From the NCBI GenBank assembly GCA_964450385.1, contig CAYVEC010000006.1:8745-72744 (forward strand): a stretch of DNA of 64,000 bases. The letters run 5' to 3'. The notes under the pieces were generated by a model. The model did no database searches, had not been told where the DNA came from, and worked only from the letters and a program-made list of their open reading frames with translations. Origin of the DNA: an uncultured Planctomycetales bacterium (GTDB lineage: Bacteria > Omnitrophota > Gorgyraeia > Zapsychrales > JANLHA01). The position numbers were made by a program, and so were the translations under genes. Positions 30,169 to 62,257 of the stretch are shown one piece after another. How positions within the stretch are numbered: position 1 is the stretch's first letter; each line of letters starts with the position of its first letter.

Positions 30169-31395
30169 ATGCCAAATACCAAGGTCCATATTTCTCAAGA
30201 ACAAGAACTCGAGGTCCTCAGAAAAATTCTCAGCATCACCTCATCCGCTGTTGATCTCGACAAGACGCTTCAGGAGACGGTGAAGATCGTGACGGCTTTT
30301 ACGGGCGCGGACTCGGTCTTTGTGTATCTCCTTGATAAGGCGCATCGTACTCTGGTCCTCCGGGCCTCTAAGATCCCGCACAAAAAGGAACTAGGCGTCG
30401 TGCACATCGGACTCGGCGAGGGGATCACCGGATGGGTGGCCCAGCAGAACAAGCCGGTTGCGATTGCTGAGAACGCGTATCAGGATAAGCGGTTTAAGGC
30501 GTTTGACGTTCTGCCTGAGGACCAGTATGAGGCCTTTTTGTCCGTGCCGCTTATTTATAAGGACAAGGTCAGCGGGGTCATCAATGTTCAGCATCGCGAG
30601 CCGCATGAGTACAGCCGTGAAACCGTGAACCTGATCCACATGATCGCCTCTCAGATCAGCGGGGTCATTGAGCACGCGCGGCTTTTTGAGGAGACGAAGG
30701 TCAAAGCGGGTCAGTTCGACCGGCTCGTCAAGGTCAGCGAATCGATCACCTCGCAGGCGTACCTCGATGAGATCTTAAATCTGATCGTGGTCGTGACCGC
30801 GGAGATGCTTAATTCAAAGATCTGTTCGATCATGCTGCTCGAGGACAAAAAAGGCGAAGAGCTCGTCATCCGCGCCACCCAGAGCCTGAGCGAGGAATAC
30901 AAGAAGAAGCCGAATCTCAAAGTCCGTCACAGTCTTCTCGGCGACGTGATCCGGACCCGCCAGCCCATTACGGTTGAGGATGTGCGCGCCGACGCGCGTT
31001 ATGCCCACCGCGCCCTGGCCATCCGTGAGGAGCTGACATCGATGGTGGCGGTCCCGATGATCGTTAAGAACAAGGTGATCGGGGTGATCAATGTCTATAC
31101 CAAGGAACCGCATCAGTTCGTCCAGGAGGAGATCAACGTTCTTCAGATGGTCGCGAATCAGGCAGCCGTGGCCGTGGAGAACACGAATCTGGTCTCTGAG
31201 GCGGTGAAGGCGAAGGAGGCCCTGGAGACCCGGAAATTCGTCGACCGGGCCAAAGGGATCCTGATGCGCCTGCATTCGCTGGATGAGGATACTGCCTACC
31301 GCATGATCCATAAAAAAAGCATGGATGCGTGCAAAACCATGAAAGAGGTCGCGGAATCGATCATTTTATTTGATGATCTGGGCCGCAAGGAATGA
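30169..31395 (+). CDS. GAF-GAF-ANTAR RNA-binding antitermination regulator
   Basis: Two GAF domains then C-terminal ANTAR helix bundle (...ETRKFVDRAKGILMRLHSLDEDTAYRMIHKKSMD...); first ATG 30169. Confidence 0.75.
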   Translation: MPNTKVHISQEQELEVLRKILSITSSAVDLDKTLQETVKIVTAFTGADSVFVYLLDKAHRTLVLRASKIPHKKELGVVHIGLGEGITGWVAQQNKPVAIAENAYQDKRFKAFDVLPEDQYEAFLSVPLIYKDKVSGVINVQHREPHEYSRETVNLIHMIASQISGVIEHARLFEETKVKAGQFDRLVKVSESITSQAYLDEILNLIVVVTAEMLNSKICSIMLLEDKKGEELVIRATQSLSEEYKKKPNLKVRHSLLGDVIRTRQPITVEDVRADARYAHRALAIREELTSMVAVPMIVKNKVIGVINVYTKEPHQFVQEEINVLQMVANQAAVAVENTNLVSEAVKAKEALETRKFVDRAKGILMRLHSLDEDTAYRMIHKKSMDACKTMKEVAESIILFDDLGRKE

Positions 31396-31535
31396 AGCGG
31401 GCATGGGTTCATTAGGGCGCTTGACAGAGCGGGATTGTTGGAGTATTCTTAAATTGTCAGGGTTAGACAGTTGAAGGACTGACATGGCAGATAAGCCCCG
31501 GAAGTAAAGAAATGCTTACCGGGGCTTTGCCATGT

Positions 31536-31562
31536 CCGGGGGGCGGATCCGCCGGGTTTTTT
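31536..31562 (+). terminator. GC-rich imperfect hairpin + T6 (terminator of ANTAR gene / candidate ANTAR-controlled structure)
   Basis: CCGGGGGGCGGATCCGCCGGG (palindromic core GGCGGATCCGCC) then TTTTTT; preceded by 8-bp hairpin AGCCCCGG...CCGGGGCT (31494-31526) that shares CCCCGG/CCGGGG arms. Confidence 0.4.
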
Positions 31563-31574
31563 GAAGTTTCACTC

Positions 31575-31603
31575 TTGACACAAAAAACATCGCGAGGTAT
31601 AGT
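31575..31603 (+). promoter_or_regulatory. consensus sigma70-type promoter for the nfn-gdhA unit
   Basis: TTGACA (31575-31580), 17-nt spacer, TATAGT (31598-31603); leaves about 150-nt leader before nfnA ATG. Confidence 0.6.
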
Positions 31604-31758
31604 ATCTTACCGCTTGAGGCATTGAGGTCTCGGGCGACCTTTTATTAAGGTAGGCAGCGTTGCCGTCACGATTGAAGTTGTGCCTATTGACCCCTTAACA
31701 ATCCCAAAGGACATGTGAGGGGATTTTTCTTTTTATTGACCCCCTGGGGAGGGTTGTC

Positions 31759-32613
31759 ATGAACGCTATTCTTAAGAAAAAACAGCTTTCTGACGAGGTT
31801 TTCCGTTTGACGGTGAGCGCTCCGCTCATTGCCGAGGAGTGTCTGCCGGGTCAATTCATCTTGCTTCAGATCCGTGATGAAGGCGAGCGGATCCCGCTCA
31901 CGATCGCGGACTCGGACAAGGCCGCAGGCACGATCACCCTTATTTTTCAGGCCGTTGGGAAGACGACCCATTTGCTTGCTGAGCTGAATGAAGGGGACGC
32001 GATCGAGAATCTGGTCGGGCCCCTCGGCCGGCCCACGCACATTGAGCGCGTTGGGACCGTTGTCTGCGTCGGGGGTGGCATCGGGGTGGCGCCTCTGTAC
32101 CCGATCGCGAAGGCGATGAAGGCGGCCGGTAACCGGCTCATTGTGATCATTGGCGCCCGGCAAAAAGACCTTGTGATCCTTGAGTCTGAGATGCGGGCGA
32201 TCGCTGATGAGCTTGTTGTCTGCACCGACGACGGGTCCTATGGCCGCAAGGCCTTGGTCACAGTGCCGCTCAAAGAGCTCTGCGAGCGCGCGGCGCCTCC
32301 GGACCTTGCGGTCGCAATCGGGCCGCCGGTGATGATGAAATTTTGTGCCGAGACGACGCGGCCCTTTAAGGTGCCGACGGTTGTTTCTCTCAACACGATC
32401 ATGATCGATGGGACCGGGATGTGCGGCGGATGCCGGGTCACGGTCGGCGGTAAGACCCAGTTTGTCTGTGTCGACGGACCGGAATTCGACGGGCATCAGG
32501 TTGATTTTGACAACATGATGAAGCGTCTTCGGGCGTATAAAGGCCATGAGGACACGGCCCACGCTCAGTGTCATTTGGAGATCGAGGCAAAAAAGAAGGC
32601 TGGGGAACGATGA
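31759..32613 (+). CDS. nfnA: NfnA/SudB-like FAD + 2Fe-2S electron-transfer subunit (PyrK family)
   Basis: 284 aa; FAD/NAD-binding fold and C-terminal CGGCRV...C cluster motif; paired and ATGA-coupled with GltD-like partner. Confidence 0.65.
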   Translation: MNAILKKKQLSDEVFRLTVSAPLIAEECLPGQFILLQIRDEGERIPLTIADSDKAAGTITLIFQAVGKTTHLLAELNEGDAIENLVGPLGRPTHIERVGTVVCVGGGIGVAPLYPIAKAMKAAGNRLIVIIGARQKDLVILESEMRAIADELVVCTDDGSYGRKALVTVPLKELCERAAPPDLAVAIGPPVMMKFCAETTRPFKVPTVVSLNTIMIDGTGMCGGCRVTVGGKTQFVCVDGPEFDGHQVDFDNMMKRLRAYKGHEDTAHAQCHLEIEAKKKAGER

Positions 32614-34106
32614 ACGACGCGCAGAAAAAGGGATCGCCCGACGAGGCGGGATGGCTGAAGGAGGTTGTGGCGCGGCACGCCGCGCTCACGCCGAAAGAGC
32701 GTCTCCTGATCCCGGCCCAGGAGATGCCGTCGCAGGACCCGGCTGTCCGTCGGAAAAATATGCAGGAGGTTGCACTCGGATATACCGCGGAGCAGGCGCG
32801 GATCGAGGCGGCTCGATGCCTTCAATGCAAAAACGCGCCCTGTGTGACCGGGTGCCCGGTCCAGATCAATATTCCAGAGTTTATCAAGGCGATCGCTGAC
32901 GCGGATTTTCAGCAGGCGATCGGGGTCATTAAGACGAGCAGCCTTCTTCCGTCGGTGTGCGGACGGGTCTGTCCGCAGGAGACGCAGTGCCAGGCCCCGT
33001 GCACGGTCGGGAAGGCCCTTAAAGATGTCAATCGGGCCGTGTCCATCGGCCGGCTCGAGCGGTTTGTCGCGGATTGGGAGCGCGAGCACGGCCATATGTC
33101 ACCGCCCGAGGTAAAGCCCGAGACCGGGAAAAAGGTCGCGGTGATTGGGACGGGTCCGGCGAGCATTACCGTAGCCGCCGACGTGCGGCGCGAGGGTCAT
33201 GCCGTGACGATGTTTGAGGCCTTTCATAAGGCCGGCGGGGTCATGGTGTACGGGATCCCGGAGTTCCGTTTGCCCAAGAAAATCGTTCAGCTTGAGATCG
33301 ATACCCTGACAGCCATGGGGGTTGAGGTGAAGATGAATTATGTGGTCGGCCGGACCCGGAAACTGACGGACTTGATTACGAAGGACGGGTTTGATGCCGC
33401 CTTTATCGGGACCGGCGCTGGGCTGCCGAAGTTTATGAATATCGACGGCGAAAACCTGATCGGCGTGTTTTCCGCGAACGAATACCTGACCCGAACGAAC
33501 CTCATGAAGGCGTATGATTTTAAGCATGCCGACACCCCGATCTTCCGGTCCCGCAAGGTCGCGGTGCTCGGCGGCGGCAATGTCGCCATGGATGCCGCGC
33601 GGACTGCGGTCCGGCTCGGCGCCGATGAGGTTCATCTCATCTACCGTCGGACCGAGGCCGAGATGCCGGCACGTGTTGAGGAGGTCCACCACGCCAAGGA
33701 AGAGGGCGTTATCTTTCACATGCTTGAGAACGCGAAGCGTATTTTAGGAAATGACGAGGGATGCGTGACGTCGATCGAGTGTCTTCGTTATGAGCTCGGC
33801 GCCCCGGATGACTCCGGGCGGCGCCGGCCGGTGGAGATCAAGGGGAGCGAATTTATTTTTGAGGTCGATACCGTGATCGTGGCGATCGGGAACGAATCGA
33901 ATCCATTGATCAAACAGACGACCCCGGGGCTAGAGACAACGCGGTGGGGGAATATCGTCGTTGATGATCAGTGCCGGACGTCGTTTGAGGGGGTGTACGC
34001 CGGGGGGGACATCGTGCTCGGGGCAGCGACGGTGATCCTCGCGATGGGCCAGGGGCGCACTGCGGCCCGGTCTATTAATGAGTATCTGGCGGCCAAAAAG
34101 GCATGA
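32610..34106 (+). CDS. nfnB: NfnB/SudA-like subunit (glutamate synthase small-chain family: 2x[4Fe-4S] + FAD + NAD(P)H)
   Basis: CLQCKNAPCVTGCP and CGRVCPQETQCQAPC cluster motifs, then GTGPAS and LGGGNVAMD dinucleotide folds; ATG 32610 overlaps nfnA stop. Confidence 0.7.
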   Translation: MNDAQKKGSPDEAGWLKEVVARHAALTPKERLLIPAQEMPSQDPAVRRKNMQEVALGYTAEQARIEAARCLQCKNAPCVTGCPVQINIPEFIKAIADADFQQAIGVIKTSSLLPSVCGRVCPQETQCQAPCTVGKALKDVNRAVSIGRLERFVADWEREHGHMSPPEVKPETGKKVAVIGTGPASITVAADVRREGHAVTMFEAFHKAGGVMVYGIPEFRLPKKIVQLEIDTLTAMGVEVKMNYVVGRTRKLTDLITKDGFDAAFIGTGAGLPKFMNIDGENLIGVFSANEYLTRTNLMKAYDFKHADTPIFRSRKVAVLGGGNVAMDAARTAVRLGADEVHLIYRRTEAEMPARVEEVHHAKEEGVIFHMLENAKRILGNDEGCVTSIECLRYELGAPDDSGRRRPVEIKGSEFIFEVDTVIVAIGNESNPLIKQTTPGLETTRWGNIVVDDQCRTSFEGVYAGGDIVLGAATVILAMGQGRTAARSINEYLAAKKA

Positions 34107-34137
34107 TTCTCCGGGGATCCGCCCCGGAAGAGTATAA

Positions 34138-35511
<1,374 letters not shown>

Positions 35512-35642
35512 GGGGAGCCCTGTGGGGTAGGCCTATTTATGGCCGCACTGATCAGGGATAGTGTTCTATTAAAGGTAGGGAAGATCGCAAGGTCGTAGAT
35601 GTGATAGTTTAATAAAAGTTTTAAAAAAATTGAAGGTAAAAA

Positions 35643-35675
35643 GGCCATATATTAACAAATATATGGCCTTTTTAA
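35643..35675 (+). terminator. strong rho-independent terminator after gdhA
   Basis: 10-bp stem GGCCATATAT/ATATATGGCC, loop TAACAA, then TTTTT; in AT-rich spacer. Confidence 0.75.
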
Positions 35676-35786
35676 TATAAATTTATCATTTTTTAAGTAT
35701 ATTGCCGCTTAAAAGAAAGCGTTTTTTTAAGATGCCCCAAAAGCATTGTTTTCAGCATTTATATACTATATATTTAGGTATATGAA

Positions 35787-36665
35787 ATGGTCTATTACAA
35801 AAACCACAATTTTATCAAAAACAATGCGTTTTTTGATTATTTTCTGCTTTTTAGGGCAATCAATAGCCCCTTCCTTTGTTTATGCGCAGATCTTTCCGGT
35901 TGCCGGCTTGCCGGCTCCAGGCGCGGCCATTTCCCTGACGTAGCCGTTTTTCCCGACTGCCTTAAGGGTATGCAGATCAATCCGCATAATCCATTTCAAT
36001 TTAATTTTATCCTGGATGCCGGTGATGAACAGCTCGATCCTGAAGATCGGAACGATCAGGTCGTAAGGCTGGCCAAGTATTTTTTGGCTGGCCTGACGAT
36101 CCCTGAGGAGGATCTGTGGGTGAACCTGTCTCCGTATGAAAAGGATCGTATTATTGCCGGTGATTTTGCCCGGACCGAGATGGGGCGCGATGTCCTTGCC
36201 CAGGATTATATGTTGAAGCAGCTGACCGCGTCGTTGATGGACCCGCGTCAGGAGCTGGGGAGTCATTTTTGGCAGCGCTTAAAAAAGCGGGCAAAAGATG
36301 AATACGGGGTGGCGGATATCACGGCCGACACCATTCATAAGGTCTGGATCGTGCCTGAGCGGGCCGAGGTGACCGTGGGCGAGAATGGTGTCTTTTTGGG
36401 CGACCTGCGGCTCCAGGTGATGCTGGAGGAAGACTATTTAGCTAGGGCGCAAGAAAGATTTATTGTTAGAACGCCCCGGCCGAATACGAACACGGCTTTG
36501 TCGACGGAGCTGATGCGTGAGCTCATCATTCCGGCGATCGAAGAGGAGGTCAATCAGGGCCGCACCTTCGCGACCCTGCGCCAGATCTACGGGGCCATGG
36601 TCCTCTCGGTGTGGTTTAAGAATCATTTAAAAGAGAGCCTTCTCACCCGCGGGTATGCAGATTAG
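35787..36665 (+). CDS. hypothetical protein, N-terminal segment of a giant low-GC ORFan; ends at in-frame TAG 36663-36665
   Basis: ATG 35787 with AGGT 7 nt upstream; no recognisable domains; same frame as 36825 ORF with no other stop between; an alternative +1-frame signal peptide (35782-35943) overlaps the 5' end. Confidence 0.4.
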   Translation: MVYYKNHNFIKNNAFFDYFLLFRAINSPFLCLCADLSGCRLAGSRRGHFPDVAVFPDCLKGMQINPHNPFQFNFILDAGDEQLDPEDRNDQVVRLAKYFLAGLTIPEEDLWVNLSPYEKDRIIAGDFARTEMGRDVLAQDYMLKQLTASLMDPRQELGSHFWQRLKKRAKDEYGVADITADTIHKVWIVPERAEVTVGENGVFLGDLRLQVMLEEDYLARAQERFIVRTPRPNTNTALSTELMRELIIPAIEEEVNQGRTFATLRQIYGAMVLSVWFKNHLKESLLTRGYAD

Positions 36666-36824
36666 CAGAAGACCGAAGGCCTTCATCCCGACGATCCGGA
36701 TATCCAGCAGAAGATCTATGAACAGTATCTCGCCGCGCTTAAGAAAGGCGTCGCGAATTTTATTCAGGAAGAGGCGGACCCGCTGACCGGGACGGTTATT
36801 CCAAGGAAATATTTTACCGGCGGG

Positions 36825-39371
36825 GTGGACGGGGCCATGATCAGCGCGCGGACCGTAGAGGTCCCGGCAACGCCTGCGACAATGGACCGGTGGAAGAGCA
36901 CGTTTGAAAATGGACTTGTAGCCAGCTTGTATTTGGTTGATCCGAAGGCAGCAACAGGAGAGCCTGTTGATATCAGCGGTGCGTCCGAGGACTCGGCCAT
37001 GCTGAGCGAGGCGGAGGCGAAGGATTTTTATGAAAGCGACCTTCAAGGAGTTGGGAGAGTTCAATGGCAGAATCTTTCTATAAAGTCGAGAGCGGTGCTT
37101 CAAGAGATCGGCAGGGATCCGAGGCTACTGGAGCTTGGGAAAGCCGCCGGGGCGAATGCGCGGAACTTGTTTTATGATGGTTTGCCGGCAGTGAAGGCGC
37201 TGTTTGGTGACGAGTTTGGTAAGTATTGGCCGGGCTTAGTCGAGTTGGGAAAAGCCGCGGGTGAAAATGCTGGGTATTTGTTTCAACATGGATTGAAGAT
37301 GGTCTACCCTTTTGTTGATCCGGCTCACGGCTGGGACGAGTGGATCAACAGGTGGCGCCAATTGGCCCGGGTCACGAATGAACACAATCTGCAAAGAATC
37401 ATTGATTTAATGAGATGGACATCGATCCTCACTTATGTCAAAGACCAGGGAGGCAGCGTTGATCAGCACTTTGATTTTTATGTTGAGCTGAGCAAAGAGA
37501 ATAAGCGTCTTGCCCTGCAAGTTTTAGAGGGGGTCTTTGACGGTTTTAAAGAAGGGAGCCTTTCTGTTGAATTAACCGACGAGGCGCGAGGCGAGATCAG
37601 GGGCTTTATTAGAAAAACGAATGGTTTTAACCTGGCCGTGTATCGTGTTTATCAACAGGAGGGCGAGGCCGGGCTGGTGAGGTTGCGGGCGTTTGCAGCA
37701 AACGCGTTGAATGACCAGGTGGGCAAGACAGAGGTCCAAGAGTTTTTAGCGGACAACCGATCCCGAGGATACGATGCCGAGTCGCTGCTTCTTGGGACAG
37801 CGCAGATGTTTGTTCCGGCCAGCGGCGCCTCGTTTGTGAATAAGGAAGAGATCTTGGGGCTGTTGAAGGAATTTATCGAGGCCGGTGACCGGCGCGGGGA
37901 TGTGCCGGAGGCGCTCCGGGGGTCGAGCTTTGGTGGTGGGGATATTGAGGTGGTGGAGTGGCGGTTAAAACAAGGGGAAACGGTTGATCCTGACGGGAGG
38001 CTGAATAGACTCGTCTCGCAGTTGAGGAACGGAGACCAGGGCCGATCAGCAGACGAGGTTGCGAAGGCTCAAGCCCAAGACCGGGCGGAGTTGGTTGCCG
38101 CGGTCAAAGAATATTTAAAGGGCCGCGGCCAGGAGACACGAGACCGGGCTGTAGAGGCCTTTTTAAGATATGTGAGCCACAATGATCTATTAAAAGAGAA
38201 GATCGATCGGATCGACGGATATGATTATGTGAATATTGAGCTGTTGGATCAGTTGTTCCGGGATAAAGACCAGCTTTTTATTCTGTTGAGGGAGATCATT
38301 GAGAAAGATATTGAAGAAGAGCTGCTGATTGTGGAAGGTGACGAGGGCGCGCCTGTTCGCGATGTTGAGGGGCTGGTCAATCGGGTCGAGGGCGTGTGGA
38401 GATCAGAGCGGCTGGGCCGTGATCAACGGCGTCAGGTTGTGGGAAACATGCTGCGGGGGTTTTCAGGGGCAGAGGTTCGGTCAAAGATTGTCCCTCGGCT
38501 TGAGGGAGAGGCCCGCGAGGCGGTCGAGGAGATTTTGAATGATCACTCGGTTCGGTGGAAGATGGATGTGGCGCAGGTGATCAATGATCTTTTGAGCGGC
38601 CCGGCCCAGGTCATCGCGCGTGAGAAGGCGCGGTTTGAGGCGGTCACGGGAGGACAGCGGATCCAGTTGAGGTTCCGGGCGGTGAAGGGTCCGTTGTATG
38701 GCCTATGGGGGCTGAATGCGGGCGTGTGTATCGCGACGGATGTTGAGTTATGGAAGGACGGGAATTTTTATCTTCTGGCTATGGTTGATGAGACGATCGG
38801 TCAGGCGGTGGGATTTATTCATCTCTACGCGCAGACGATGGATGGGCGGCGGGTCGTGGTTGTTCCGGGGATCGAGCCGAGCGTGGAATTTTTGGGGCAG
38901 GTTAAGGTGAGTGACATTTATCCGATGATCGAGGCGGCGTTACGTGAGGTGGCGGTGCGGGCGGGGTATGAGGCGGTGTATCTGCCAACGAATGAAAATA
39001 TTTTGAGCAACCGGGGGGATATTCAGAAGCTGGTGACGAGGGCGGGGTACAAGATCTCGGATAAATTCAAGGGGCCGGTCCGCTGGAATCATGTGCCCGG
39101 GCCCGCTCTTATTCATCAGGTGTATGACGTGCCGGTCACCAAGGCGAAAACTGACTCGGCCATGCTGAGCGAGGCGGCGTCTGAGCCGGCACAGATCGGC
39201 CGCGATCAGGTGGGCGGCATTGACCTCGCCGGGATCAATATTGATATGGTGATCCGCGGTGAGATGCCGTTTCAGATGCCGGCCATCACAGAGGAGGCCC
39301 TGATCATGGATGCGGATTTCAGCGGGCTGGTGCCCGTGGTACATTTTGTGGTGCCGGTGGCTGTGAAATGA
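36825..39371 (+). CDS. hypothetical large protein (848-aa segment; frame continuous with 35787-36665 across a single TAG; possibly one 1.19-kaa protein or a pseudogene)
   Basis: Uninterrupted 2.5-kb ORF, lower GC than flanks, no known motifs recognised; internal 30-aa tandem repeat (ELGKAAGxNAxxLF) and 25-bp perfect direct DNA repeats at 36990 and 39153. Confidence 0.5.
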   Translation: MDGAMISARTVEVPATPATMDRWKSTFENGLVASLYLVDPKAATGEPVDISGASEDSAMLSEAEAKDFYESDLQGVGRVQWQNLSIKSRAVLQEIGRDPRLLELGKAAGANARNLFYDGLPAVKALFGDEFGKYWPGLVELGKAAGENAGYLFQHGLKMVYPFVDPAHGWDEWINRWRQLARVTNEHNLQRIIDLMRWTSILTYVKDQGGSVDQHFDFYVELSKENKRLALQVLEGVFDGFKEGSLSVELTDEARGEIRGFIRKTNGFNLAVYRVYQQEGEAGLVRLRAFAANALNDQVGKTEVQEFLADNRSRGYDAESLLLGTAQMFVPASGASFVNKEEILGLLKEFIEAGDRRGDVPEALRGSSFGGGDIEVVEWRLKQGETVDPDGRLNRLVSQLRNGDQGRSADEVAKAQAQDRAELVAAVKEYLKGRGQETRDRAVEAFLRYVSHNDLLKEKIDRIDGYDYVNIELLDQLFRDKDQLFILLREIIEKDIEEELLIVEGDEGAPVRDVEGLVNRVEGVWRSERLGRDQRRQVVGNMLRGFSGAEVRSKIVPRLEGEAREAVEEILNDHSVRWKMDVAQVINDLLSGPAQVIAREKARFEAVTGGQRIQLRFRAVKGPLYGLWGLNAGVCIATDVELWKDGNFYLLAMVDETIGQAVGFIHLYAQTMDGRRVVVVPGIEPSVEFLGQVKVSDIYPMIEAALREVAVRAGYEAVYLPTNENILSNRGDIQKLVTRAGYKISDKFKGPVRWNHVPGPALIHQVYDVPVTKAKTDSAMLSEAASEPAQIGRDQVGGIDLAGINIDMVIRGEMPFQMPAITEEALIMDADFSGLVPVVHFVVPVAVK

Positions 39372-39411: not shown

Positions 39412-39440
39412 TTGACAATCCCAATCTCATCGTGTATATT
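39412..39440 (+). promoter_or_regulatory. consensus sigma70-type promoter of amt-glnK unit
   Basis: TTGACA (39412-39417), 17-nt spacer, TATATT (39435-39440); about 200-nt structured leader follows. Confidence 0.6.
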
Positions 39441-54648: not shown

Positions 54649-54703
54649 TGTCAAGGATTGGCCGGTGAAAGTCCTTGACATTGGCGGGTGATAACGGTAT
54701 AGT
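54649..54703 (+). promoter_or_regulatory. carA promoter with overlapping 9-bp inverted-repeat operator
   Basis: IR TGTCAAGGA-N14-TCCTTGACA; right arm contains -35 TTGACA (54675-54680), 17-nt spacer, -10 TATAGT (54698-54703). Confidence 0.55.
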
Positions 54704-54724
54704 AAACTATGTTTTAGGGCATTG

Positions 54725-54764
54725 AAGTCCTCAAAATTGTGGTTAATTTTGAGGACTTTTTTTG
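54725..54764 (+). terminator. leader hairpin + T7 in carA 5' UTR (candidate transcription attenuator)
   Basis: Near-perfect 14-bp stem AAGTCCTCAAAATT/AATTTTGAGGACTT, loop GTGGTT, then TTTTTTTG, located between promoter -10 and carA ATG. Confidence 0.55.
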
Positions 54765-54805: not shown

Positions 54806-55936
54806 ATGAAACGGGCGGTTATTTATTTAGAAGACGGGGTGATGTTTTACGGCCGGTCCCTTGATGTCACGGGTGAGTCCGAGGGCGAGGTTGTCTTTAA
54901 CACCTCGATGACCGGTTATCAGGAGATCCTGACGGACCCGAGTTATGCCGGTCAGATCGTGACCATGACGTATCCGCTTATTGGAAATTATGGGGTCAAC
55001 GGCGATGATGTTGAGTCGGACCGCGTCCATGTGAAGGGTTTTGTCGTCAAGGAATTCTGCCGCCGCCATTCGAATTTCCGCGCCACCGAAAGCCTGATCG
55101 ATTATCTAAAGCGTTATCAGATCCTCGCGGTTGAGGGGGTGGACACCCGGGCACTCACACGTCATCTTCGCGAGCATGGGTCGATGCGCGCGATCTTGTC
55201 GACCGAGGACATGGACCCGGCCTCGCTGGCTAAAAAAATGACACGGGTCCCGTCGATGGACGGGGCGGATTGGGTGAGCGCGGTCACGGCCCGTGAGCCG
55301 TATGTCTGGCCGGCGGAGGGGGCGTATCAAGACCGTCCGAGGTTTCGCGTCGCGGTCATTGACTGCGGGGTCAAGTGGACGATCCTGCGTATCTTTGCCC
55401 GGCTTGGGTGCGAGTGCCATGTCTTTCCGGCCGGGACGGCGCTCGAGGCGATGCTTGCTATTCGGCCGGATGGGCTCTTTATTTCAAACGGTCCCGGGGA
55501 CCCGGCGGCCGTGACCTCTGTTATCGCCGAGACGCGCAAGGCGATCGGCCGGCTGCCGATCTTTGGGATCTGCCTCGGCAATCAGATCTTGGGGCTAGCC
55601 CTGGGCGGACGGACCTATAAATTAAAGTTTGGACATCACGGGGCGAATCACCCGGTCCTGGATACGAGCCATGCCCGGATCGGGATCACATCGCAGAACC
55701 ACGGATTTTGTGTGGACCTTAATTCACTTGATCGGAAGGATATCGAGATCATCAACCTGAATCTGAACGATCAGACGGTCGAGGGAATTCGGCATAAACG
55801 ATATCCGATCTATGCGGTGCAGCATCATCCCGAGGCCGCGCCGGGGCCGCACGATGCCAGGTATTTGTTTGAAGATTTTATCCGGATGATGAATGAGAAT
55901 GCAACAGGGGTCGGGCGGCCAGCGGGCCGTCGCTAG
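54806..55936 (+). CDS. carA: carbamoyl-phosphate synthase small (glutaminase) subunit
   Basis: MKRAVIYLEDGVMFYGRSLD... CarA N-domain + class I GATase triad (GICLGNQ, HH); ATG 54806 (ORF-track TTG 54722 runs through leader hairpin). Confidence 0.9.
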   Translation: MKRAVIYLEDGVMFYGRSLDVTGESEGEVVFNTSMTGYQEILTDPSYAGQIVTMTYPLIGNYGVNGDDVESDRVHVKGFVVKEFCRRHSNFRATESLIDYLKRYQILAVEGVDTRALTRHLREHGSMRAILSTEDMDPASLAKKMTRVPSMDGADWVSAVTAREPYVWPAEGAYQDRPRFRVAVIDCGVKWTILRIFARLGCECHVFPAGTALEAMLAIRPDGLFISNGPGDPAAVTSVIAETRKAIGRLPIFGICLGNQILGLALGGRTYKLKFGHHGANHPVLDTSHARIGITSQNHGFCVDLNSLDRKDIEIINLNLNDQTVEGIRHKRYPIYAVQHHPEAAPGPHDARYLFEDFIRMMNENATGVGRPAGRR

Positions 55937-55945
55937 GGACAGAGT

Positions 55946-58900
55946 ATGCCGAAACGCAGCGATATCCATAAAATTTTATTGATCGGGTCCGGGCCGATTG
56001 TGATCGGCCAGGCCTGTGAATTTGACTATTCCGGCACTCAGGCCTGTAAGGCCTTGCGGGAGGAGGGCTATGAGGTTGTCTTGGTGAATTCCAATCCGGC
56101 GACGATCATGACCGACCCCGAGACCGCGGATGCAACCTATATTGAGCCGCTCACCGTTGAGTTCGTCGAGAAGATCATTGAGAAGGAACGGCCTGACGCG
56201 GTGCTTCCGACCCTCGGGGGCCAGACGGGGCTGAACCTCGCGATCGCGCTTTATGAGGCGGGAGTTCTTGAGCGTTACGGGGTCAAGATGCTCGGGGCGG
56301 CCTATGAGGTGATCAAGAAGGCCGAGGACCGGGAACATTTTAAAAAGGCGGTCGAGAGCATCGGGCTCGATCTGCCCCGGAGTGCGTTCGCCCGGACCAT
56401 GGACGAGGCCTGGGCCGCGGCCGAGGAGATCGGGTTCCCGCTGATCATCCGGTCGTCGTTCACCCTCGGCGGGACCGGCGGCGGGATCGTGCGCGACCGC
56501 GCGGATTTTGAACGTATGGCCTCGCTCGGTCTCGACAGCAGTATTATCCGCGAGATCCTCATTGAGGAATCGATCGAAGGGTGGAAGGAATATGAGCTCG
56601 AGGTCATGCGCGACACAAAGGATAACGTCGTCATCGTTTGTTCGATTGAAAACCTTGATCCCATGGGGGTCCATACCGGCGACAGCATTACGGTTGCGCC
56701 GCAGCAGACGCTGACCGATGCCGAGTACCAGGAGATGCGTGATGCCTCGCTCGCCTTGATCCGTGAGATCGGCGTCGAGACCGGCGGATCGAATATCCAG
56801 TTCGCGGTGGATTCCGAGAACGGCCGCATGGTCGTGATCGAGATGAATCCCCGCGTCTCGCGGAGTTCGGCCCTGGCGAGCAAGGCGACGGGGTTCCCGA
56901 TCGCGAAGTTCGCGGCGAAATTGGCGGTGGGGTATTCGCTCGACGAGATCCAGAACGATATTACCCGCGAGACCCCGGCGAGTTTCGAGCCGGCCATTGA
57001 TTACTGCGTGGTCAAGGCCCCGCGTTTTACCTTTGAGAAATTCCCCGAGGCCCAGGACATCCTCGGCGTCCAGATGAAATCCGTCGGTGAGACCATGGCG
57101 ATCGGCCGGACCTTTAAGGAGGCCCTGCAGAAGGCTCTGCGCGGGCTTGAGATCGGCCACGCCGGGCTCGACAACAAGCTCGATTATCGTCAGATCCCGC
57201 CGGAAAAGATCATCCAGCGCCTGAGCGAGCCGAACGCCTCTCGGATCTTTTATATCAAATACGCGTTTCAGGCCGGGATGTGCCTTGAGGAGATCGCGCG
57301 CATCAGCCGGATCGATCCCTGGTTCTTGGCGCAGATCGAGCAGATCCTTGACCTGGAACGCGATCTTGTGGCCGCGGCCGAGGCGAACGCTCTGACCCCC
57401 GAACTTCTCCGGCAGGCCAAGGAATACGGGTTCGGGGATGCCCAGCTCGCCGTGATCTTTAAGACCACGGAGCTCGAGATGAGGGCGCGGCGTAAAGCCC
57501 TGGGGATCACCGCTGTTTTTAAGCAGGTCGACACCTGCGCGGCCGAGTTCGAGGCGTATACCCCGTATTATTATTCGACGTATGAAAAGGAAGACGAGTC
57601 CGGAATCCGGGCCCGTGAGGCCTCCTCGCGGAAAAAGCGGATCATGATCCTCGGCGGCGGGCCGAACCGGATTGGTCAGGGGATCGAATTTGATTACTGC
57701 TGTTGTCATGCCTCCTTTGCCTTAAAAGAGATGGGGTTCGAGACGATCATGGTGAACTCGAATCCCGAGACGGTCTCCACAGATTATGATACCTCGGACC
57801 GCCTATATTTTGAGCCGGTGACCTTTGAGGATGTGATGAACATTGTGGAGGTCGAACGGCCGGACGGCGTTATTGTCCAGTACGGCGGCCAGACCCCGCT
57901 CAATCTTGCCCGGCGGCTTCATGAGGCCGGGGTCCCGATCATCGGGACGTCGGTGGATTCGATCGACCTCGCAGAGAACCGGGAACTCTTTTCCAAATTT
58001 ATCACGGGGCTCGGGATCGAACAGCCGGCCAACGGATCGGCGAATTCCGTCGAGGATGCAGTCGCCGCGGCCTCGGCGATCGGGTATCCCGTCCTGGCGC
58101 GGCCGTCGTATGTCCTGGGCGGGCGCGCGATGCGGATCGTTTATGACCGCGATGAACTGCTCCGTTTTATCGACGCGGCCAAGGAGGTCTCGGCGGGTCA
58201 TCCGATCCTCATCGATAAATTTATTGAGGACGCGATTGAGGTTGACGTTGATGCGATCTCGGACGGCCGGGATGTTGTGGTGGCCGGGATCATGGAGCAC
58301 ATTGAGAATGCCGGGATTCACTCCGGGGATTCGGCCTGTGTGATCCCGCCTCCGACGATCAGCGAGGCGACGCTTGAGCGGATCCGCGAGTGCACGCGCC
58401 AGATGGCGCTCGGCCTTCATGTGGTGGGCCTGATGAATGTCCAGTTCGCGATCAAGGGGAGCCGGGTGATGGTTCTTGAGGTCAATCCGCGCGCCTCGCG
58501 CACGATCCCGTTCGTGGCCAAGGCCACGGGCAATCCGGTCGCGAAGATCGCGGCCCAGATCATGGCCGGGAAACAGCTGGGTGATTTTCAATTGAACCTC
58601 GGCGACCCGGACCATTTTTCGATCAAAGAGTCTGTCCTGCCGTTCTCTCGTTTTTCCGGCGTGGATATTGTCCTAGGACCTGAAATGAAATCGACTGGCG
58701 AGGTTATGGGGATCGCGGCCTCGTATGGGGAGGCCTTCGCGAAATCGCAGATCGCGGCCGGCCAGAGCCTGCCGCGCGAGGGTGCGGTCTTTATCAGCGT
58801 GAACGATGAGGATAAGCGCCAGACGATCTTTGTCGCCAAAAAATTGAGGGATCTCGGATTTGACCTTGTGGCCACGAGGGGAACGGCCAAGGTACTCCGC

Positions 58901-59197
58901 TCGAACGGGGTTCCGGTGGAGGTCGTTGAGAAATGCGGCGAGGGTCAGCAGGACCTGATGAAGCTGGTCCGCGGGGGGCGCATCCGCCTGATTCTAAATA
59001 CACCGTCGGGGTCCCGGAGTCAGTCCGACATGCGGGCGATCCGCGCGGCGGCGATCCTTCACGGGGTGCCGTGTATCACGACACTTCAGGGGGCCTGGGC
59101 CGCGGTCAACGCCCTGGACGTCGCGGGTCAGGCGGGGTGGTCGGTCTGTTCGCTTCAGGATTATTATGCCCGGCGGACTCAGGGCCCGAAAGGCTAG
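55946..59197 (+). CDS. carB: carbamoyl-phosphate synthase large subunit
   Basis: 1083 aa; duplicated ATP-grasp halves, oligomerisation domain, MGS-like C-terminus. Confidence 0.95.
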
Positions 59198-59224
59198 GCA
59201 GGGTCGTGATCGAGAGGGGGACGT

Positions 59225-60598
59225 ATGTGCGGGATCATCGGAATATCGAATCAGCCCGAGGCAAGCAAGGCCATTTATTTGGGGCTCTACGCCCTTCAGC
59301 ACCGCGGTGAGGAGGCGGCCGGGGTGGCCTCGTTCGACGGAGACCGGGTGCATCTGATCAAGAATCCCGGGCTCGTCACGGACGCCTTGAGCCCGCAGGA
59401 CCTTGACAGGCTGAAAGGCCGCGCCGCGATCGGGCACTGCCGGTATTCGACGACCGGATCGAGCAATGTGAAGAACACCCAGCCGTTCCTCGTCCGTCAC
59501 CGCGGGCAGTCGATCGCGATCGCCCACAATGGCAATTTGACGAACACCGCCGAGCTCCATCACCGCCTCGAAGAGGAGGGATCGCTGTTTCAGACCACGA
59601 TGGATTCGGAGCTCATCGTTCATCTCTTGGCCAAGGAAAAGGCCGGCGACCTTGCGGGGATGTTCACGAACGTCCTCCGCCAGCTCGAGGGCGCCTTCTC
59701 GCTCGTCTTTCTCGTTGGAGACACGATTGTCGGGGCCCGGGACCCCAAGGGCTTTCGGCCCCTGTGCCTGGGGAAGGCCGCTGAGGGGTATGTCCTTGCG
59801 AGTGAGACATGTGCCTTTGACCTGATCGGCGCTGAGCACGTCCGGGAGATCGAGCCTGGTGAACTGGTCATTATCAAGAAAGACATCTTGGAGACGTATC
59901 GTTATGCGCAGACATCAGGGGCTTCGGCCCAGTGTATTTTTGAGAATATCTATTTTTCTCGTCCAGACAGCCGTATTTTTGGTGACAATGTATATTTGAC
60001 ACGCAAACGCTTGGGCGCGCAGCTCGCCAAGGAACACCCGAAGCGAGACGCGGATTTTGTGATGGCGATCCCAGATTCGGGAAATTACGCGGCCCTGGGG
60101 TATGCGCAGGAGATCGGTCTGCCGTTCGAGACCGGGATGATCCGGAACCACTATATCGGTCGGACGTTTATCCAGCCCACGCAGTTCATCCGCGAGGCTC
60201 GGGTCCGGGTCAAGCTGAATCCGATTCGGGAGGTTCTGGCCGGCAAGAGCGTTGTCGTTGTCGAGGACTCGATCGTGCGCGGGACTACGAGCCGGAGCCG
60301 GATCGAGGCGATCCGGAAGGCCGGGGCGCGCGAGATCCACATGCGGATCAGCTGTCCGCCGATCCAGTGGCCGTGTTTTTACGGGATCGATTTTCCTAAT
60401 AAAAAAGAATTGATCGCTTCGAATCAGACGGTCGAGGAGATCGCCCGTTTTATCGGGGTGGATTCGCTCGGGTATCTGAGCCGGGAGGGGATGCTTTCGG
60501 CGATGGCGACGAAGGGGACGTTCTGTCACGCGTGTTTTTCAGGGACGTATCCAGTGGCGGTCCCGGGCGGGCAGGGGAAATATCTGCTTGAAGCATGA
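59225..60598 (+). CDS. purF: amidophosphoribosyltransferase
   Basis: N-terminal MCGIIGI (Ntn Cys after Met removal), PRT-type domain, C-terminal Cys residues for Fe-S cluster. Confidence 0.9.
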   Translation: MCGIIGISNQPEASKAIYLGLYALQHRGEEAAGVASFDGDRVHLIKNPGLVTDALSPQDLDRLKGRAAIGHCRYSTTGSSNVKNTQPFLVRHRGQSIAIAHNGNLTNTAELHHRLEEEGSLFQTTMDSELIVHLLAKEKAGDLAGMFTNVLRQLEGAFSLVFLVGDTIVGARDPKGFRPLCLGKAAEGYVLASETCAFDLIGAEHVREIEPGELVIIKKDILETYRYAQTSGASAQCIFENIYFSRPDSRIFGDNVYLTRKRLGAQLAKEHPKRDADFVMAIPDSGNYAALGYAQEIGLPFETGMIRNHYIGRTFIQPTQFIREARVRVKLNPIREVLAGKSVVVVEDSIVRGTTSRSRIEAIRKAGAREIHMRISCPPIQWPCFYGIDFPNKKELIASNQTVEEIARFIGVDSLGYLSREGMLSAMATKGTFCHACFSGTYPVAVPGGQGKYLLEA

Positions 60599-60649
60599 GG
60601 GTTCAGACCAGAGTCCAGAGATGAGGGCGCATAACGATAGGGGCGGAGG

Positions 60650-62257
60650 ATGAGTAAATTCATTTTTGTCACCGGGGGCGTTGTTTCGAGTCTGGGCAAA
60701 GGGCTGGCGTCGGCCTCGATCGGAAAATTGCTCGAGGAGCGCGGGCTCAAGGTCGCGTTCATCAAATGCGATCCGTATCTGAACGTCGATCCCGGGACGA
60801 TGAGCCCCTTTCAGCATGGCGAGGTTTATGTCACGGATGACGGCGCCGAGACGGACCTCGACCTCGGTCATTATGAACGGTTCACCCATGCTGTCTGCAC
60901 CCGTTCGAGCAATATCACGACGGGCAAGATCTATTATTCGGTGATCACGAAAGAACGCCGGGGGGATTATCTCGGTAAGACGATCCAGATTATCCCGCAT
61001 ATTACGAACGAGATCAAGGACGCGATCCGCCGGGTCCCCAAGGAGCAGGATGTCGATGTCACGATCGTGGAGATCGGCGGCACCGTCGGCGACATCGAGA
61101 GCCTTCCCTTTTTGGAGGCGATCCGTCAGATGCGCTGGGAACTCGGAGAGGGTTACGCGATCAACATCCATGTGACCCTTCTGCCTTATATCAAAGCCGC
61201 GGGGGAGCATAAGACCAAGCCGACCCAGCACAGCGTCGGACGGCTTCGCGAGATCGGGATCCAGCCGGATTTCCTGCTCTGCCGGACTGAAAAACACATG
61301 ACGAAGGATCAGCGGGATAAGATCTCGCTGTTCTGCAATGTCGACCGCGATTCGGTCATTGAGGCGATCGATGTCAAAAGCATCTATGAGGTCCCGCTCT
61401 TTTTTAAGAAACAGCGGCTCGATGACCTGATCCTGCGGAAACTGAATATCCCGCGCGAGGACAGGGAGATGACCTCGTGGGAGGAGGTGGTGGGCCGCGT
61501 CCGCCAGCCTGGGCATGAGGTCCGGATCGCTGTCGTTGGGAAATATATCGCCCTGCCGGACGCGTATAAATCGATCTATGAGGCCCTGACCCACGGCGGG
61601 ATCGCGAATGACACGCGGGTCTGTGTCGAGAAGATCGATTCCGAAGACCTGGAGAAGGGCGGGAACCCGGGCCAGTATCTCGCGACAGCGGACGGGATCC
61701 TGATCCCCGGCGGGTTTGGCGATCGGGGGATCGAGGGAAAGATCACGGCCGTGCGCTACGCCCGCGAACAGGGGGTTCCGTTCTTTGGCATCTGTCTCGG
61801 CATGCAGGTGGCCACGATCGAGTTCGCCCGGAATGTCTGCGGCATGGACGCCGCGAATTCAACGGAATTCAAGGTCGACACCCCGCATCCGGTGATCAGC
61901 CTTCTTGAGGAACAAAAGACGGTCCGGACCAAGGGGGCCACGATGCGCCTCGGATCCTATGAGTGCCGTCTCGCAAAGTCCTCGCGGGCCTACGCGGCCT
62001 ATGGTCAGGAGACGATCCATGAACGGCATCGTCACCGGTATGAATTTAACGGCGCCTACCTCGATGCCCTGACAAAGCATGGGGCTGTTGTCGCCGGGAC
62101 CAATCCCGAGACCGGGCTCGTTGAGATCATTGAGATCCCGGCCCACCCCTGGTTCGTGGCCTGCCAGTTCCATCCGGAATTCAAGTCAAAACCGGACCAG
62201 GCCCATCCCTTATTTCGGCATTTCGTCGCCGCGGCCCTCGCGCGTCAGAAACGCTGA
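60650..62257 (+). CDS. pyrG: CTP synthase
   Basis: N-terminal synthetase domain [19 protein letters not shown]-terminal GATase GICLGMQ; 535 aa. Confidence 0.95.

Follow-up and report, generated by a model that had tools for sequence, protein, structure and literature searches.

The window, by which we mean the whole 64-kb stretch of DNA analysed here, comes from a host belonging to Candidatus Omnitrophota. The initial annotation described a block at 30169-62257 dominated by glutamine/glutamate nitrogen genes and headed by a GAF-GAF-ANTAR regulator. Based on a count of gene calls, ~15 of the 20 genes in this region are indeed involved in producing, consuming, or regulating glutamine/glutamate nitrogen, the others being an ORFan pair, a 44-aa micro-ORF, a symporter, and a TPR gene. 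Searches of Pfam and NCBIfam reproduced every gene identity originally named, from the regulator to pyrG, and the reported gltX, tRNA-Gln, and glnS were all located upstream of the block. The genes and operons are as follows:

17276-18547, GluRS gene, upstream of the block
18751-18824, tRNA-Gln(CTG), upstream of the block
18870-20573, GlnRS gene, upstream of the block
30169-31395, plus strand, one-component regulator gene (408-aa product)
31759-35511, plus strand, nfnA-nfnB-gdhA operon (NADPH supply and NADP-type glutamate dehydrogenase)
31759-32613 and 32568-34106, plus strand, NfnA/NfnB-type genes (PRK06222 family; 'gltA' TIGR01316 family)
34150-35511, plus strand, gdhA
35638-35673, bidirectional terminator closing the nfnA-nfnB-gdhA operon
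39641-52285, plus strand, amt-glnK-(micro-ORF)-glnN(GSIII)-GATase-nadE-gltB-gltD operon
52312-52341, terminator closing the amt operon
54806-62257, plus strand, carA-carB-purF-pyrG operon (glutamine amidotransferase pathways)

The regulator gene is directly preceded by nqrF, the last gene of an nqrA-F operon. Two ORFs at 35787-39371 had no match in Pfam or NCBIfam. The products of the amt operon include a P-II protein (glnK), a type III glutamine synthetase (glnN), a class-I GATase, and a NadE of the glutamine-dependent type, with CN_hydrolase and NAD_synthase domains. Between gltD and carA lie an SSF symporter gene, on the minus strand, and a gene for a TPR protein. The start codons of amt and carA were corrected to the ATGs at 39641 and 54806, respectively, and glnN probably starts near 41594, rather than at the GTG at 41456.

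Orthologs of the regulator, with 53-78% protein identity, were found at 29 related loci, where amt-glnK and/or glnN-GATase-nadE-gltB usually come after the regulator gene. The comparison of synteny proposed in the initial annotation places the gene beside nitrogen-assimilation genes across the Omnitrophota, with amt/glnK/glnN downstream of it at 22 of the 29 loci. Four close relatives (L031-L034) also keep the order gltB-gltD-(SSF symporter, minus strand)-TPR-carA-carB-purF-pyrG. We conclude that this nitrogen-assimilation cluster is conserved in the Omnitrophota, and not a one-off.

The GAF-GAF-ANTAR regulator

The regulator scores 153 bits with Pfam GAF_2 and 70.9 bits with Pfam ANTAR, for which the cutoff is 27.3 bits. 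Its domains are arranged as follows:

~aa 11-172, GAF1, PtsP/EI-Ntr-like
~aa 182-356, GAF2, NifA-like
~aa 337-402 of 408, C-terminal ANTAR domain

The best NCBIfam models are PtsP for GAF1 (NF008283, 1.9e-38) and NifA for GAF2 (TIGR01817, 2.1e-28). In a comparison with the PDB, the full length of GAF1 could be aligned to 3CI6, the GAF structure of PtsP (E 1e-22), whilst the ANTAR domain matched Rv1626, EutV, and NasR. Aligned to EutV, the regulator keeps R142, K143, K149, E160, Y164, and M172, the residues that contact G4 and position the hexaloop (PMC8934654). More than 7000 homologs exist, named "GAF and ANTAR domain-containing" or "GAF and PtsI domain", and the reviews list no characterised GAF-ANTAR protein.

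Thus, GAF1 resembles the GAF domain of PtsP (EI-Ntr) and GAF2 the N-terminal GAF domain of NifA, but here they are joined to an RNA-binding ANTAR domain as the output, in place of a PEP-phosphotransferase or AAA+ sigma-54 activator. The GAF domain of NifA responds to 2-oxoglutarate. That of PtsP binds glutamine (PMC4848567), and PtsP responds to glutamine/2-oxoglutarate (PMC4848567 and Lee 2013 cited there). The regulator is therefore probably a glutamine/2-oxoglutarate sensor of an uncharacterised kind, an assignment that rests on likeness to PtsP and NifA, as GAF ligands are not readable from sequence.

Promoters, hairpins, and terminators in the leaders

The leaders of nfnA, amt, and carA that had been singled out in the initial annotation proved to be real, each with an 11/12 promoter and hairpin-plus-T-run elements:

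31421-31566, plus strand, unit resembling an sRNA or a leader, with a separate 10/12 promoter, three hairpins, and a terminator
31575-31603, plus strand, nfnA promoter TTGACA-17-TATAGT (11/12 sigma-70 match)
31611-31636, plus strand, hexaloop hairpin CGCUUGAGGC-AUUGAG-GUCUCGGGCG with A1 and G4, 14 nt past the -10 box
31691-31737, plus strand, terminator-like hairpin and U-run, 22 nt before the nfnA start
39412-39440, plus strand, amt promoter TTGACA-17-TATATT (11/12 sigma-70 match)
39449-39470, plus strand, P1 hairpin CUGAAGGC-GCUGGG-GUCUUCAG, hexaloop with G4, -10.6 kcal/mol
39486-39497, plus strand, P2a hairpin GAC-AGUGAA-GUC with A1 and G4
39495-39538, plus strand, intrinsic terminator 1, GUCCUC...GAGGAU and U7, -17.8 kcal/mol
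39554-39569, plus strand, putative second antiterminator hairpin GGGGC-AGAGAC-GUCCU with A1 and G4
39565-39614, plus strand, intrinsic terminator 2, GUCCUUAAAGGGC...GCCUUUUAGGGAU and U-run, -18.8 kcal/mol
54675-54703, plus strand, carA promoter TTGACA-17-TATAGT (11/12 sigma-70 match)
54716-54731, plus strand, hexaloop hairpin AGGGC-AUUGAA-GUCCU, of the family consensus, 14 nt past the -10 box
54727-54763, plus strand, intrinsic terminator with a 13-bp stem, its 5′ arm GUCCUC overlapping the 3′ arm of the hairpin

All of the gene-strand 11/12 and 10/12 promoter matches in the region are intergenic, the one exception being at 48837 within gltB (10/12), and all three leader promoters are followed, 13-14 nt past the -10 box, by a GGC-NNNGNN-GUC hexaloop hairpin. 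The unit at 31421-31566 (-35 at 31421, -10 at 31444; fold z = -4.8) is kept in L001, L002, and L030, where its AGUAAAGAAAUGCU apex is invariant, and had no match in Rfam; its membership in the regulator system is uncertain.

The strongest site is that of carA. It scores 29.6 bits (E 5e-5) with a CM whose scores and invariant columns are partly circular, since the motif seeds were chosen by regular expression. With a leave-out PWM, built only from the sites of other genomes and no window sequences, it tops the 64-kb window at 30.7 bits vs 14.5 bits for the next site. The terminator is the more stable structure (-15.6 vs -5.5 kcal/mol for the hairpin). An equivalent hairpin and terminator precede carA in relatives L031 (GGGC-AAUGGC-GCCC) and L033, and the motif is absent from the carA leaders of L032 and L034, in the latter case even though the contig seems to encode the regulator. 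The carA leader holds a single hairpin and no P1/P2 pair, which counts against an ANTAR mechanism, given that antitermination by EutV in vitro needed two hexaloops (PMC8934654).

The amt leader comprises two tandem attenuators, the first of which has a P1+P2 pair. P1 sits 15 nt upstream of P2, and terminator 1 begins with the 3′ arm of P2. The layout is the same in the closest relative, L002, and P1-type hairpins occur in both L002 (loop GUUGCG) and L009 (loop AGCGAC). P2a is weak with CM R1 (8.1 bits); the second hairpin reaches 17.2 bits (E 0.05) with the same model, whose seed includes this very sequence, and 9.0 bits with the leave-out PWM (rank 6 in the window).

The nfnA hairpin (10 bp, -14.3 kcal/mol) scores only 8.8 bits and, like P2a at ~8 bits, has an E of 6-10 with CM R1. 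It stays clear of the terminator that follows, and in L002 the nfnA leader is not conserved and lacks the motif. We regard it as a weak candidate for an ANTAR site, and control of nfnAB-gdhA through it as doubtful. The suggestion that all three leaders are plausible ANTAR targets can be kept for amt and carA, where a hexaloop hairpin overlaps the terminator. A candidate ANTAR-type substrate, which the initial annotation had proposed to look for, was found in both; the paired hairpins it had envisaged are seen at amt only.

A hexaloop motif shared among relatives

Across the 29 loci and the window, we counted 51 gene-strand copies of the motif G[GA][GA]C-ANNGNN-G[UC][UC]C vs 4 on the opposite strand, whilst first-order Markov simulations gave 5.0 ± 2.4 occurrences (maximum 11). 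With strict criteria for terminator overlap, the counts are 17 vs 0. Another A1/G4 hexaloop hairpin, whose stem has 5 bp or more, lies 3-50 nt upstream of 39% of the sites vs 3.6% of random positions. The A1 and G4 of the motif sites agree with the published ANTAR consensus (PMC3369931, PMC8934654). In the relatives, the motif is found in the leaders of amt-glnK, glnN-GATase-nadE-gltB, glnA, nirB, and nitrate-transport genes that come right after the regulator gene, and a 17-nt core, AGGGCAUUGAAGUCCUC, is identical at carA in the window and at glnN in L022, which points to one trans-factor with a nitrogen theme.

We consider it quite improbable that the leaders are run by other means, such as a PyrR-like protein (at carA), a riboswitch, or constitutive partial termination, with the likeness of the loops being coincidental. 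Pyrimidine operons are classically attenuated by PyrR, and the hairpins are short and information-poor; moreover, the carA leader has weak Rfam matches to PyrR (16.4 bits) and NsiR1 (19.7 bits). However, these fall far below the gathering thresholds of 54 and 39, respectively, a hairpin of 4-5 bp is too small for a ligand pocket, and both the shared core and the strand and position bias of 51 vs 4 speak against such an explanation. There was no Rfam match to a glutamine riboswitch at E ≤ 10.

The clustering might also reflect conserved gene order alone, i.e., a metabolic "supra-operon" kept by co-inheritance, with independent promoters and no shared regulator. Gene order is indeed kept in L032 and L034 as well, whose carA leaders are without the motif, and the ORFan island, symporter, and TPR gene break up the cluster. 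Nevertheless, the three near-identical promoter/hairpin designs, the terminators placed between promoters and first genes, and a motif family common to the relatives make this explanation very improbable.

Proposed control and comparison with known systems

The closest precedent is the GnfK/GnfR system of Geobacter sulfurreducens (Ueki & Lovley 2010, PMC2995071). GnfR relieves premature termination in the leaders of nitrogen genes, amtB and glnK among them, and its conserved site upstream of these two, CAGGCAANGGCGCC, forms a GGC-AANGGC-GCC hexaloop hairpin that precedes the terminator and overlaps it. The site belongs to the same hairpin class as GGGC-AAUGGC-GCCC of L031 and GGGC-AUUGAA-GUCC of the window. 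However, GnfR is a phosphorylated response regulator in a sigma-54 cascade, whereas here we find a one-component GAF-GAF protein and sigma-70-like promoters, and the regulon would lack nif genes and include GSIII, GOGAT, nadE, and carAB-purF-pyrG.

The likeness to the site of a REC-ANTAR protein raises the possibility that the leaders are real ANTAR substrates served by another ANTAR protein encoded elsewhere in the genome, e.g., a REC-ANTAR response regulator like GnfR or NasT, with the GAF-GAF-ANTAR protein having other targets or a modulatory role. ANTAR domains are thought to be unspecialised for particular RNAs (PMC7496416), and the part of the genome covered is the 64-kb window. Yet the regulator gene, at 53-78% identity, lies directly upstream of a motif leader in most of the 29 loci, the motif even precedes the regulator gene itself in L029, and there is no second ANTAR gene within the window or the examined flanks. 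We therefore think this arrangement unlikely.

As in EutV and other dual-hexaloop ANTAR targets (Ramesh 2012, PMC3369931; Walshe 2022, PMC8934654), the hexaloops carry A1 and G4, the hairpin overlaps an intrinsic terminator, and the amt leader has a P1-linker-P2 layout; the G4-contacting R, K, E, and Y and the Met plug are conserved as well. The sensor of EutV, in contrast, is a REC domain with the EutW kinase. Furthermore, several sites here (e.g., carA) are single hairpins ~10 nt from the predicted transcription start, stems are fixed as GGGC/GUCC, and loop positions 5-6 favor A-A/U. NasR (NIT-ANTAR) is likewise a one-component ligand sensor fused to ANTAR, and NasR/NasT act by leader antitermination of nitrogen-assimilation genes; in the relatives the motif precedes nirB and nitrate-transport genes. 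The NIT domain, however, senses nitrate/nitrite and is pathway-specific, whereas the tandem GAF domains apparently report general nitrogen status and control central GS-GOGAT.

Taken together, the 32-kb block is probably an RNA-antitermination regulon of the neighboring GAF-GAF-ANTAR protein, and we believe it likely that at least two units, amt...gltBD and carAB-purF-pyrG, are under ANTAR antitermination served by this adjacent regulator. As judged from the sequence, strong sigma-70-type promoters would fire, and the leader RNA would meet terminators of -15 to -19 kcal/mol, one at carA and two at amt, that win by default. Just 5′ of each terminator lies a 3-5-bp R-N-N-G-N-N hexaloop hairpin (~-5 kcal/mol) that shares its GUCCUC 5′ arm. 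By homology with EutV, NasR, and GnfR, a regulator dimer would grip the hexaloops, with G4 flipped onto the conserved Tyr, and, with the shared arm held, no terminator would form and RNA polymerase would read through. The two GAF domains, whose prototypes PtsP/EI-Ntr and NifA report glutamine and/or 2-oxoglutarate, would set this activity. The likeliest logic is that low glutamine/high 2-oxoglutarate would lead to RNA binding and read-through, with direction and ligand being the weakest step. Placing producers and consumers of glutamine under one sign of control is physiologically unintuitive, which counts against the scheme.

Control of nitrogen genes by ANTAR proteins has precedents in Geobacter GnfR and in Ramesh 2012, where P-II, amt, GS, and GOGAT genes were predicted to have ANTAR sites upstream (PMC3369931). 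What would be new in the Omnitrophota system is the type of sensor, attenuators built on a single hairpin, and a regulon that takes in carAB-purF-pyrG.

A conserved nitrogen gene cluster and its probable regulator

The initial annotation described 32 kb of nitrogen genes headed by a GAF-GAF-ANTAR regulator, and ORF listing together with profile searches confirmed its gene list. Downstream of the regulator gene lie nfnA/nfnB-type genes, gdhA and two ORFs without a family match; then amt, glnK, and genes for a type III glutamine synthetase (glnN) and a class-I amidotransferase, with glutamine-dependent nadE, gltB and gltD; and, after a symporter gene and a TPR protein gene, carA, carB, purF and pyrG. 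GluRS, tRNA-Gln and GlnRS are encoded ~10 kb upstream of the cluster. We revised the start codons of amt (ATG at 39641) and carA (ATG at 54806), and glnN probably starts near ~41594.

Features in and around the cluster
12181-12337: 6S RNA gene (Rfam RF00013, 71 bits)
24097-29917: Na+-NQR operon nqrA-F, ending directly upstream of the regulator gene
29949-30143: Cys-rich membrane ORF of 64 aa, between nqrF and the regulator gene
30169-31395, plus strand: GAF-GAF-ANTAR regulator of 408 aa (ORF listing and profile searches)
31421-31566: sRNA-like unit between the regulator gene and the nfnA promoter, with a 10/12 sigma-70 promoter at 31421, three hairpins and a terminator
35638-35673: bidirectional terminator after gdhA, a perfect 16-bp AT-rich palindrome with A- and T-runs at its sides
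35787-39371: ORFan pair, with no Pfam or NCBIfam match
41413-41547: hydrophobic micro-ORF of 44 aa between glnK and glnN, with a strong AAGGAGG ribosome-binding site
52323-53630, minus strand: sodium:solute symporter, followed by the TPR protein gene

Scanning genomes with the regulator protein retrieved 29 loci (53-78% identity), nearly all from Candidatus Omnitrophota MAGs. The amt-glnK and/or glnN-GATase-nadE-gltB genes follow the regulator gene on the same strand in ~22 of these 29 loci, and the order gltB-gltD-symporter (minus strand)-TPR-carA-carB-purF-pyrG is kept in four relatives that were retrieved via carA homologs. We therefore regard the cluster as a conserved trait of this clade. 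The co-localization of nitrogen genes that had been pointed out at the outset is thus borne out, since both the adjacency to the regulator gene and the gene order recur in relatives. Several carA and regulator homologs are on contigs with equal recorded lengths, and so appear to be contig neighbours. In each of the four carA-anchored relatives, the symporter gene likewise separates gltD from the TPR gene and points the other way; the symporter may be nitrogen-related. On the other side of the regulator gene, the adjacent gene is nqrF, the last of the nqr operon, and an nqrF homolog occupies this place in ~11 of the 29 related loci. The Cys-rich ORF, which we take to be possibly NqrM-like, has homologs at the equivalent position in relatives, on the reverse strand.

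PF03861 recognized the ANTAR domain of the regulator at aa 402-453 of a 462-aa ORF (70.9 bits; cutoff, 27.3), and phmmer matched it to Rv1626 (1S8N), EutV (6WSH) and NasR (4AKK). Its alignment with EutV is ungapped, and the EutV residues R142, K143, K149, E160, Y164 and M172, which recognize the flipped-out G4 and position the hexaloop (PMC8934654), are all identical in the regulator. E146 and K147 of EutV are conservatively substituted by D and R; R168 (H in the regulator), N173 (D), R175 and R177 are not kept, and the loop containing the R168-R177 positions is variable in Rv1626 and NasR too.

The first GAF domain (GAF1, aa 11-171) matched the PtsP GAF structure 3CI6 (E = 9.8e-23) and positions 3-159 of the PtsP profile NF008283 (E = 1.9e-38), and the top NCBIfam models were PtsP for GAF1 and NifA for GAF2. 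No PEP-utilizer (PtsI catalytic) Pfam domain was found in the regulator, and the PtsP model scored 132 bits against a full-length cutoff of 583; the sensor module alone is common to the regulator and PtsP/EI-Ntr. The regulator has more than 7000 homologs, whose names are all generic ("GAF and ANTAR domain-containing protein" or "signal transduction protein with GAF and PtsI domain", for instance); "GAF and PtsI domain" protein is a JGI name for homologs. 2-Oxoglutarate is the signal to which the NifA GAF domain responds. The GAF domain of PtsP is needed for glutamine binding, and the autophosphorylation of EI-Ntr is inhibited by glutamine (PMC4848567), where glutamine and 2-oxoglutarate are described as having reciprocal effects (Lee et al., 2013, as cited in PMC4848567). 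We infer from these domain matches that the regulator responds to glutamine/2-oxoglutarate, and likewise the sign of that response.

Hairpins and terminators in the amt, carA and nfnA leaders

The amt, carA and nfnA leaders had been proposed as targets at which the ANTAR protein would bind paired hairpins. In these leaders we located the following elements.

Leader elements (P1 and P2, tandem hexaloop hairpins)
39412: amt promoter, 11/12 match to the sigma-70 consensus
39449-39470: amt P1 hairpin, CUGAAGGC-GCUGGG-GUCUUCAG, whose loop has G4 only and no A1
39486-39497: amt P2a hairpin, GAC-AGUGAA-GUC, separated from P1 by a 15-nt linker
39495-39538: amt terminator 1 (-17.8 kcal/mol), overlapping P2a through a common GUCCUC arm (39495-39500)
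39554-39569: amt second hairpin, GGGGC-AGAGAC-GUCCU
39565-39614: amt terminator 2 (-18.8 kcal/mol), overlapping the second hairpin through a common arm (39565-39569)
54675: carA promoter, 11/12 sigma-70 match
54716-54731: carA hairpin, AGGGC-AUUGAA-GUCCU (-5.5 kcal/mol)
54727-54763: carA terminator, 13-bp stem and U-run (-15.6 kcal/mol), its 5′ arm being the 3′ arm of the hairpin (common GUCCUC, 54727-54732)
31575: nfnA promoter, 11/12 sigma-70 match
31611-31636: nfnA hairpin of 10 bp, loop AUUGAG
31691-31737: nfnA terminator-like element

At all three promoters, a GGC-NNNGNN-GUC hairpin starts 13-14 nt past the -10 hexamer, and hexaloops with both A1 and G4 are present in the carA (AUUGAA), amt (AGUGAA and AGAGAC) and nfnA (AUUGAG) leaders. 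Each leader has one copy of the 10-mer CAKTGARGTC, which is found nowhere else in the 64 kb; these three occurrences compare with an expected 0.46.

The amt leader comprises two tandem attenuators, a layout shared with L002, the closest relative, in which loop position 1 is G. A tandem hexaloop pair with a short linker was found in the amt leader and in the related loci L002, L009, L011, L012, L022 and L026. The carA leader has one hexaloop hairpin, starting ~10 nt from the predicted transcription start, and no tandem partner; its architecture is kept in two of the carA-anchored relatives, L031 (GGGC-AAUGGC-GCCC and terminator) and L033, and the carA leaders of the other two, L032 and L034, are without it. 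Pairing of hairpins, as originally suggested, therefore applies to amt (P1 and P2), but not to the single hairpin of carA. The nfnA hairpin does not overlap the terminator-like element, so that the two would not be mutually exclusive; the region upstream of nfnA in L002 has no such motif, and the contig of another relative, L001, stops within nfnA. As predicted ANTAR targets, the amt and carA leaders are supported, whereas the nfnA leader is a weak candidate.

The hexaloop hairpins at the amt and carA terminators have folding energies of ~-5 kcal/mol, compared with -15.6 to -18.8 kcal/mol for the terminators. Because such weak hairpins alone cannot outcompete the terminators, termination would win by default and read-through would depend on a protein, as in EutV, NasR and GnfR. 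The conserved adjacency of the regulator gene, the kept RNA-contact residues and the loop consensus point to the regulator as the binder.

Known RNA families offered other explanations for the leaders. Rfam 15 at gathering thresholds found 6S RNA and tRNAs only in the whole window and no family in the three leaders, and at E ≤ 10 each leader gave sub-threshold noise only, on which basis a glutamine riboswitch was rejected. A PyrR attenuator (RF00515) in the carA leader (16.4 bits against a gathering threshold of 54, E = 5) was likewise rejected, and NsiR1 was among the sub-threshold matches (19.7 against 39).

L001, L002 and L030 keep the sRNA-like unit, and the stretch at its apex, AGUAAAGAAAUGCU, is invariant, with a hexaloop, AAGAAA, without G4. 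Neither an Rfam match nor a significant antisense target within the window was found for it, and a metagenome scan with its core recovered a second copy of the L002 sequence only. Downstream of the unit in L001 come a GAC-AAAGAC-GUC hairpin and a terminator, and since there is no new promoter before the amt-operon attenuator, the unit may be a leader domain there. By analogy with EutX/Rli55, it might, speculatively, modulate the regulator.

The hexaloop/terminator motif in related loci

A loose hairpin and terminator scan was dropped as too noisy (196 matches vs 61), and scanning the window for GRC-N6-GYC brought up numerous matches in coding regions; significance therefore rests on a stricter motif and on position. 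Across the 29 loci and the window, the pattern G[GA][GA]C-ANNGNN-G[TC][TC]C with a paired stem had 51 occurrences on the strand of the regulator gene and 4 on the opposite one, compared with 5.0 ± 2.4 (maximum 11) in first-order Markov simulations. With an obligatory overlapping terminator, the count was 17 against 0. A matrix built from 41 non-window sites scored the carA site at 30.7 bits (runner-up window position, 14.5; training median, 27.8), the amt site at 39549 at 9.0 (rank 6), and left the nfnA site unranked. The covariance model of the motif gave useful scores in the window for its own two seeds only (29.6 and 17.2 bits), and the nfnA site (8.8 bits) and amt P2a (8.1 bits) were not significant on score alone. 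Across the family, A1 is fixed by the search pattern and G4 is invariant; because the seeds were picked by regular expression, some of the conservation in the alignment is a product of that choice.

Another A1/G4 hexaloop hairpin, with 5 bp or more in its stem, was present 3-50 nt upstream of 39% of sites, compared with 3.6% of random positions, and the family is therefore a mix of dual and single arrangements. A hexaloop at the terminator apex was considered as P2 and dropped; it is present in some leaders (L007, L011, L022 and L026) and missing from others.

In relatives, sites lie 5′ of amt-glnK and glnN-GATase-nadE-gltB, and also 5′ of genes for an MFS transporter, an NrtA-like nitrate-binding protein and a type I glutamine synthetase. 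Three loci have nirB with an upstream site directly past the regulator gene, and in L029 the site is 5′ of the regulator gene itself.

Leaders in related loci
L003 3033-4902; L015 8102-13889; L028 11275-15758; L018 13343-14887: hexaloop/terminator leaders of nirB, NrtA-like, MFS and type I glutamine synthetase genes

From these leaders, we conclude that the predicted regulon of the family reaches nitrate/nitrite assimilation.

Outside Omnitrophota, a MAG labelled Clostridia (L026, 3600-3730) encodes a regulator that is 53% identical. After its gene comes a dual hexaloop of textbook form (GGGC-AUAGAA-GUCC and CCGGC-AGUGAA-GCUGG) whose second hairpin is the terminator apex, with amt and glnK downstream.

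The ORFan pair was rejected as a regulon member, having no motif upstream and homologs in differing contexts: one precedes the regulator gene in L014 (46-48% identity), and a remnant is found at 4490-4803 of L031. The pair is probably one ~1190-aa gene in which a stop codon marks a pseudogene or stems from a sequencing error, because the frame of the second ORF runs upstream to a TAG at 36663. The AT-rich flank at 35540-35790 suggests insertion, and we treated the pair as such. The micro-ORF overlaps the annotated GTG start of glnN, and had no significant homolog in the retrieved related loci.

Known and proposed ANTAR control of nitrogen metabolism

ANTAR sites were previously predicted, in a range of bacteria, 5′ of the genes for P-II, ammonium transporters, glutamine synthetase and glutamate synthase (Ramesh et al., 2012; PMC3369931), and GnfR-dependent antitermination was described at nif, glnK and amtB leaders (Ueki & Lovley, 2010; PMC2995071). 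The principle of ANTAR control of nitrogen genes is therefore known, and the GnfR site, CAGGCAANGGCGCC, is of a hairpin class that matches the sites here. GnfR has a REC domain and a cognate histidine kinase, GnfK, whereas the regulator described here had no Response_reg (REC) match, its N-terminus being GAF-GAF, and no kinase gene adjoins its own. The minimal ANTAR site has since been redefined as one hexaloop (Walshe et al., 2022; PMC8934654).

What is new is a sensor made of PtsP- and NifA-type GAF domains in tandem, attenuators with a single hairpin close to the promoter, a predicted regulon that takes in carAB-purF-pyrG and nadE, and the phylum. We found no characterized GAF-ANTAR protein in the ANTAR literature and, to our knowledge, the characterized ANTAR members all sense via a receiver domain, a partner protein, NIT or LOV.

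We tentatively raise the possibility, which we consider rather unlikely, that the PtsP-like/NifA-like GAF-GAF-ANTAR protein is a master regulator of nitrogen status in Omnitrophota, which would sense glutamine and/or 2-oxoglutarate directly, with no kinase or P-II relay, and act through minimal, often single, promoter-proximal hexaloops. It would thereby co-regulate nitrogen acquisition (amt, nirB and nitrate transport), GS-GOGAT and the main glutamine-spending pathways to NAD, carbamoyl phosphate, purines and CTP. If true, the large GAF-ANTAR class would gain its first assigned function, and single-hexaloop antitermination would have a natural example.

ANTAR antitermination has already been tied to nitrogen metabolism, and the GAF-ANTAR architecture is very common. 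This locus, from an uncultured phylum, offers a concrete predicted regulon that is kept across the sampled relatives, a defined putative RNA site and, from PtsP and NifA GAF homology, a ligand hypothesis (glutamine/2-oxoglutarate). Its single-hexaloop attenuators are natural material for the "successive binding" model proposed for EutV, and the gene content suggests that one attenuation regulon can cover both glutamine synthesis and the nucleotide and NAD pathways that consume glutamine.
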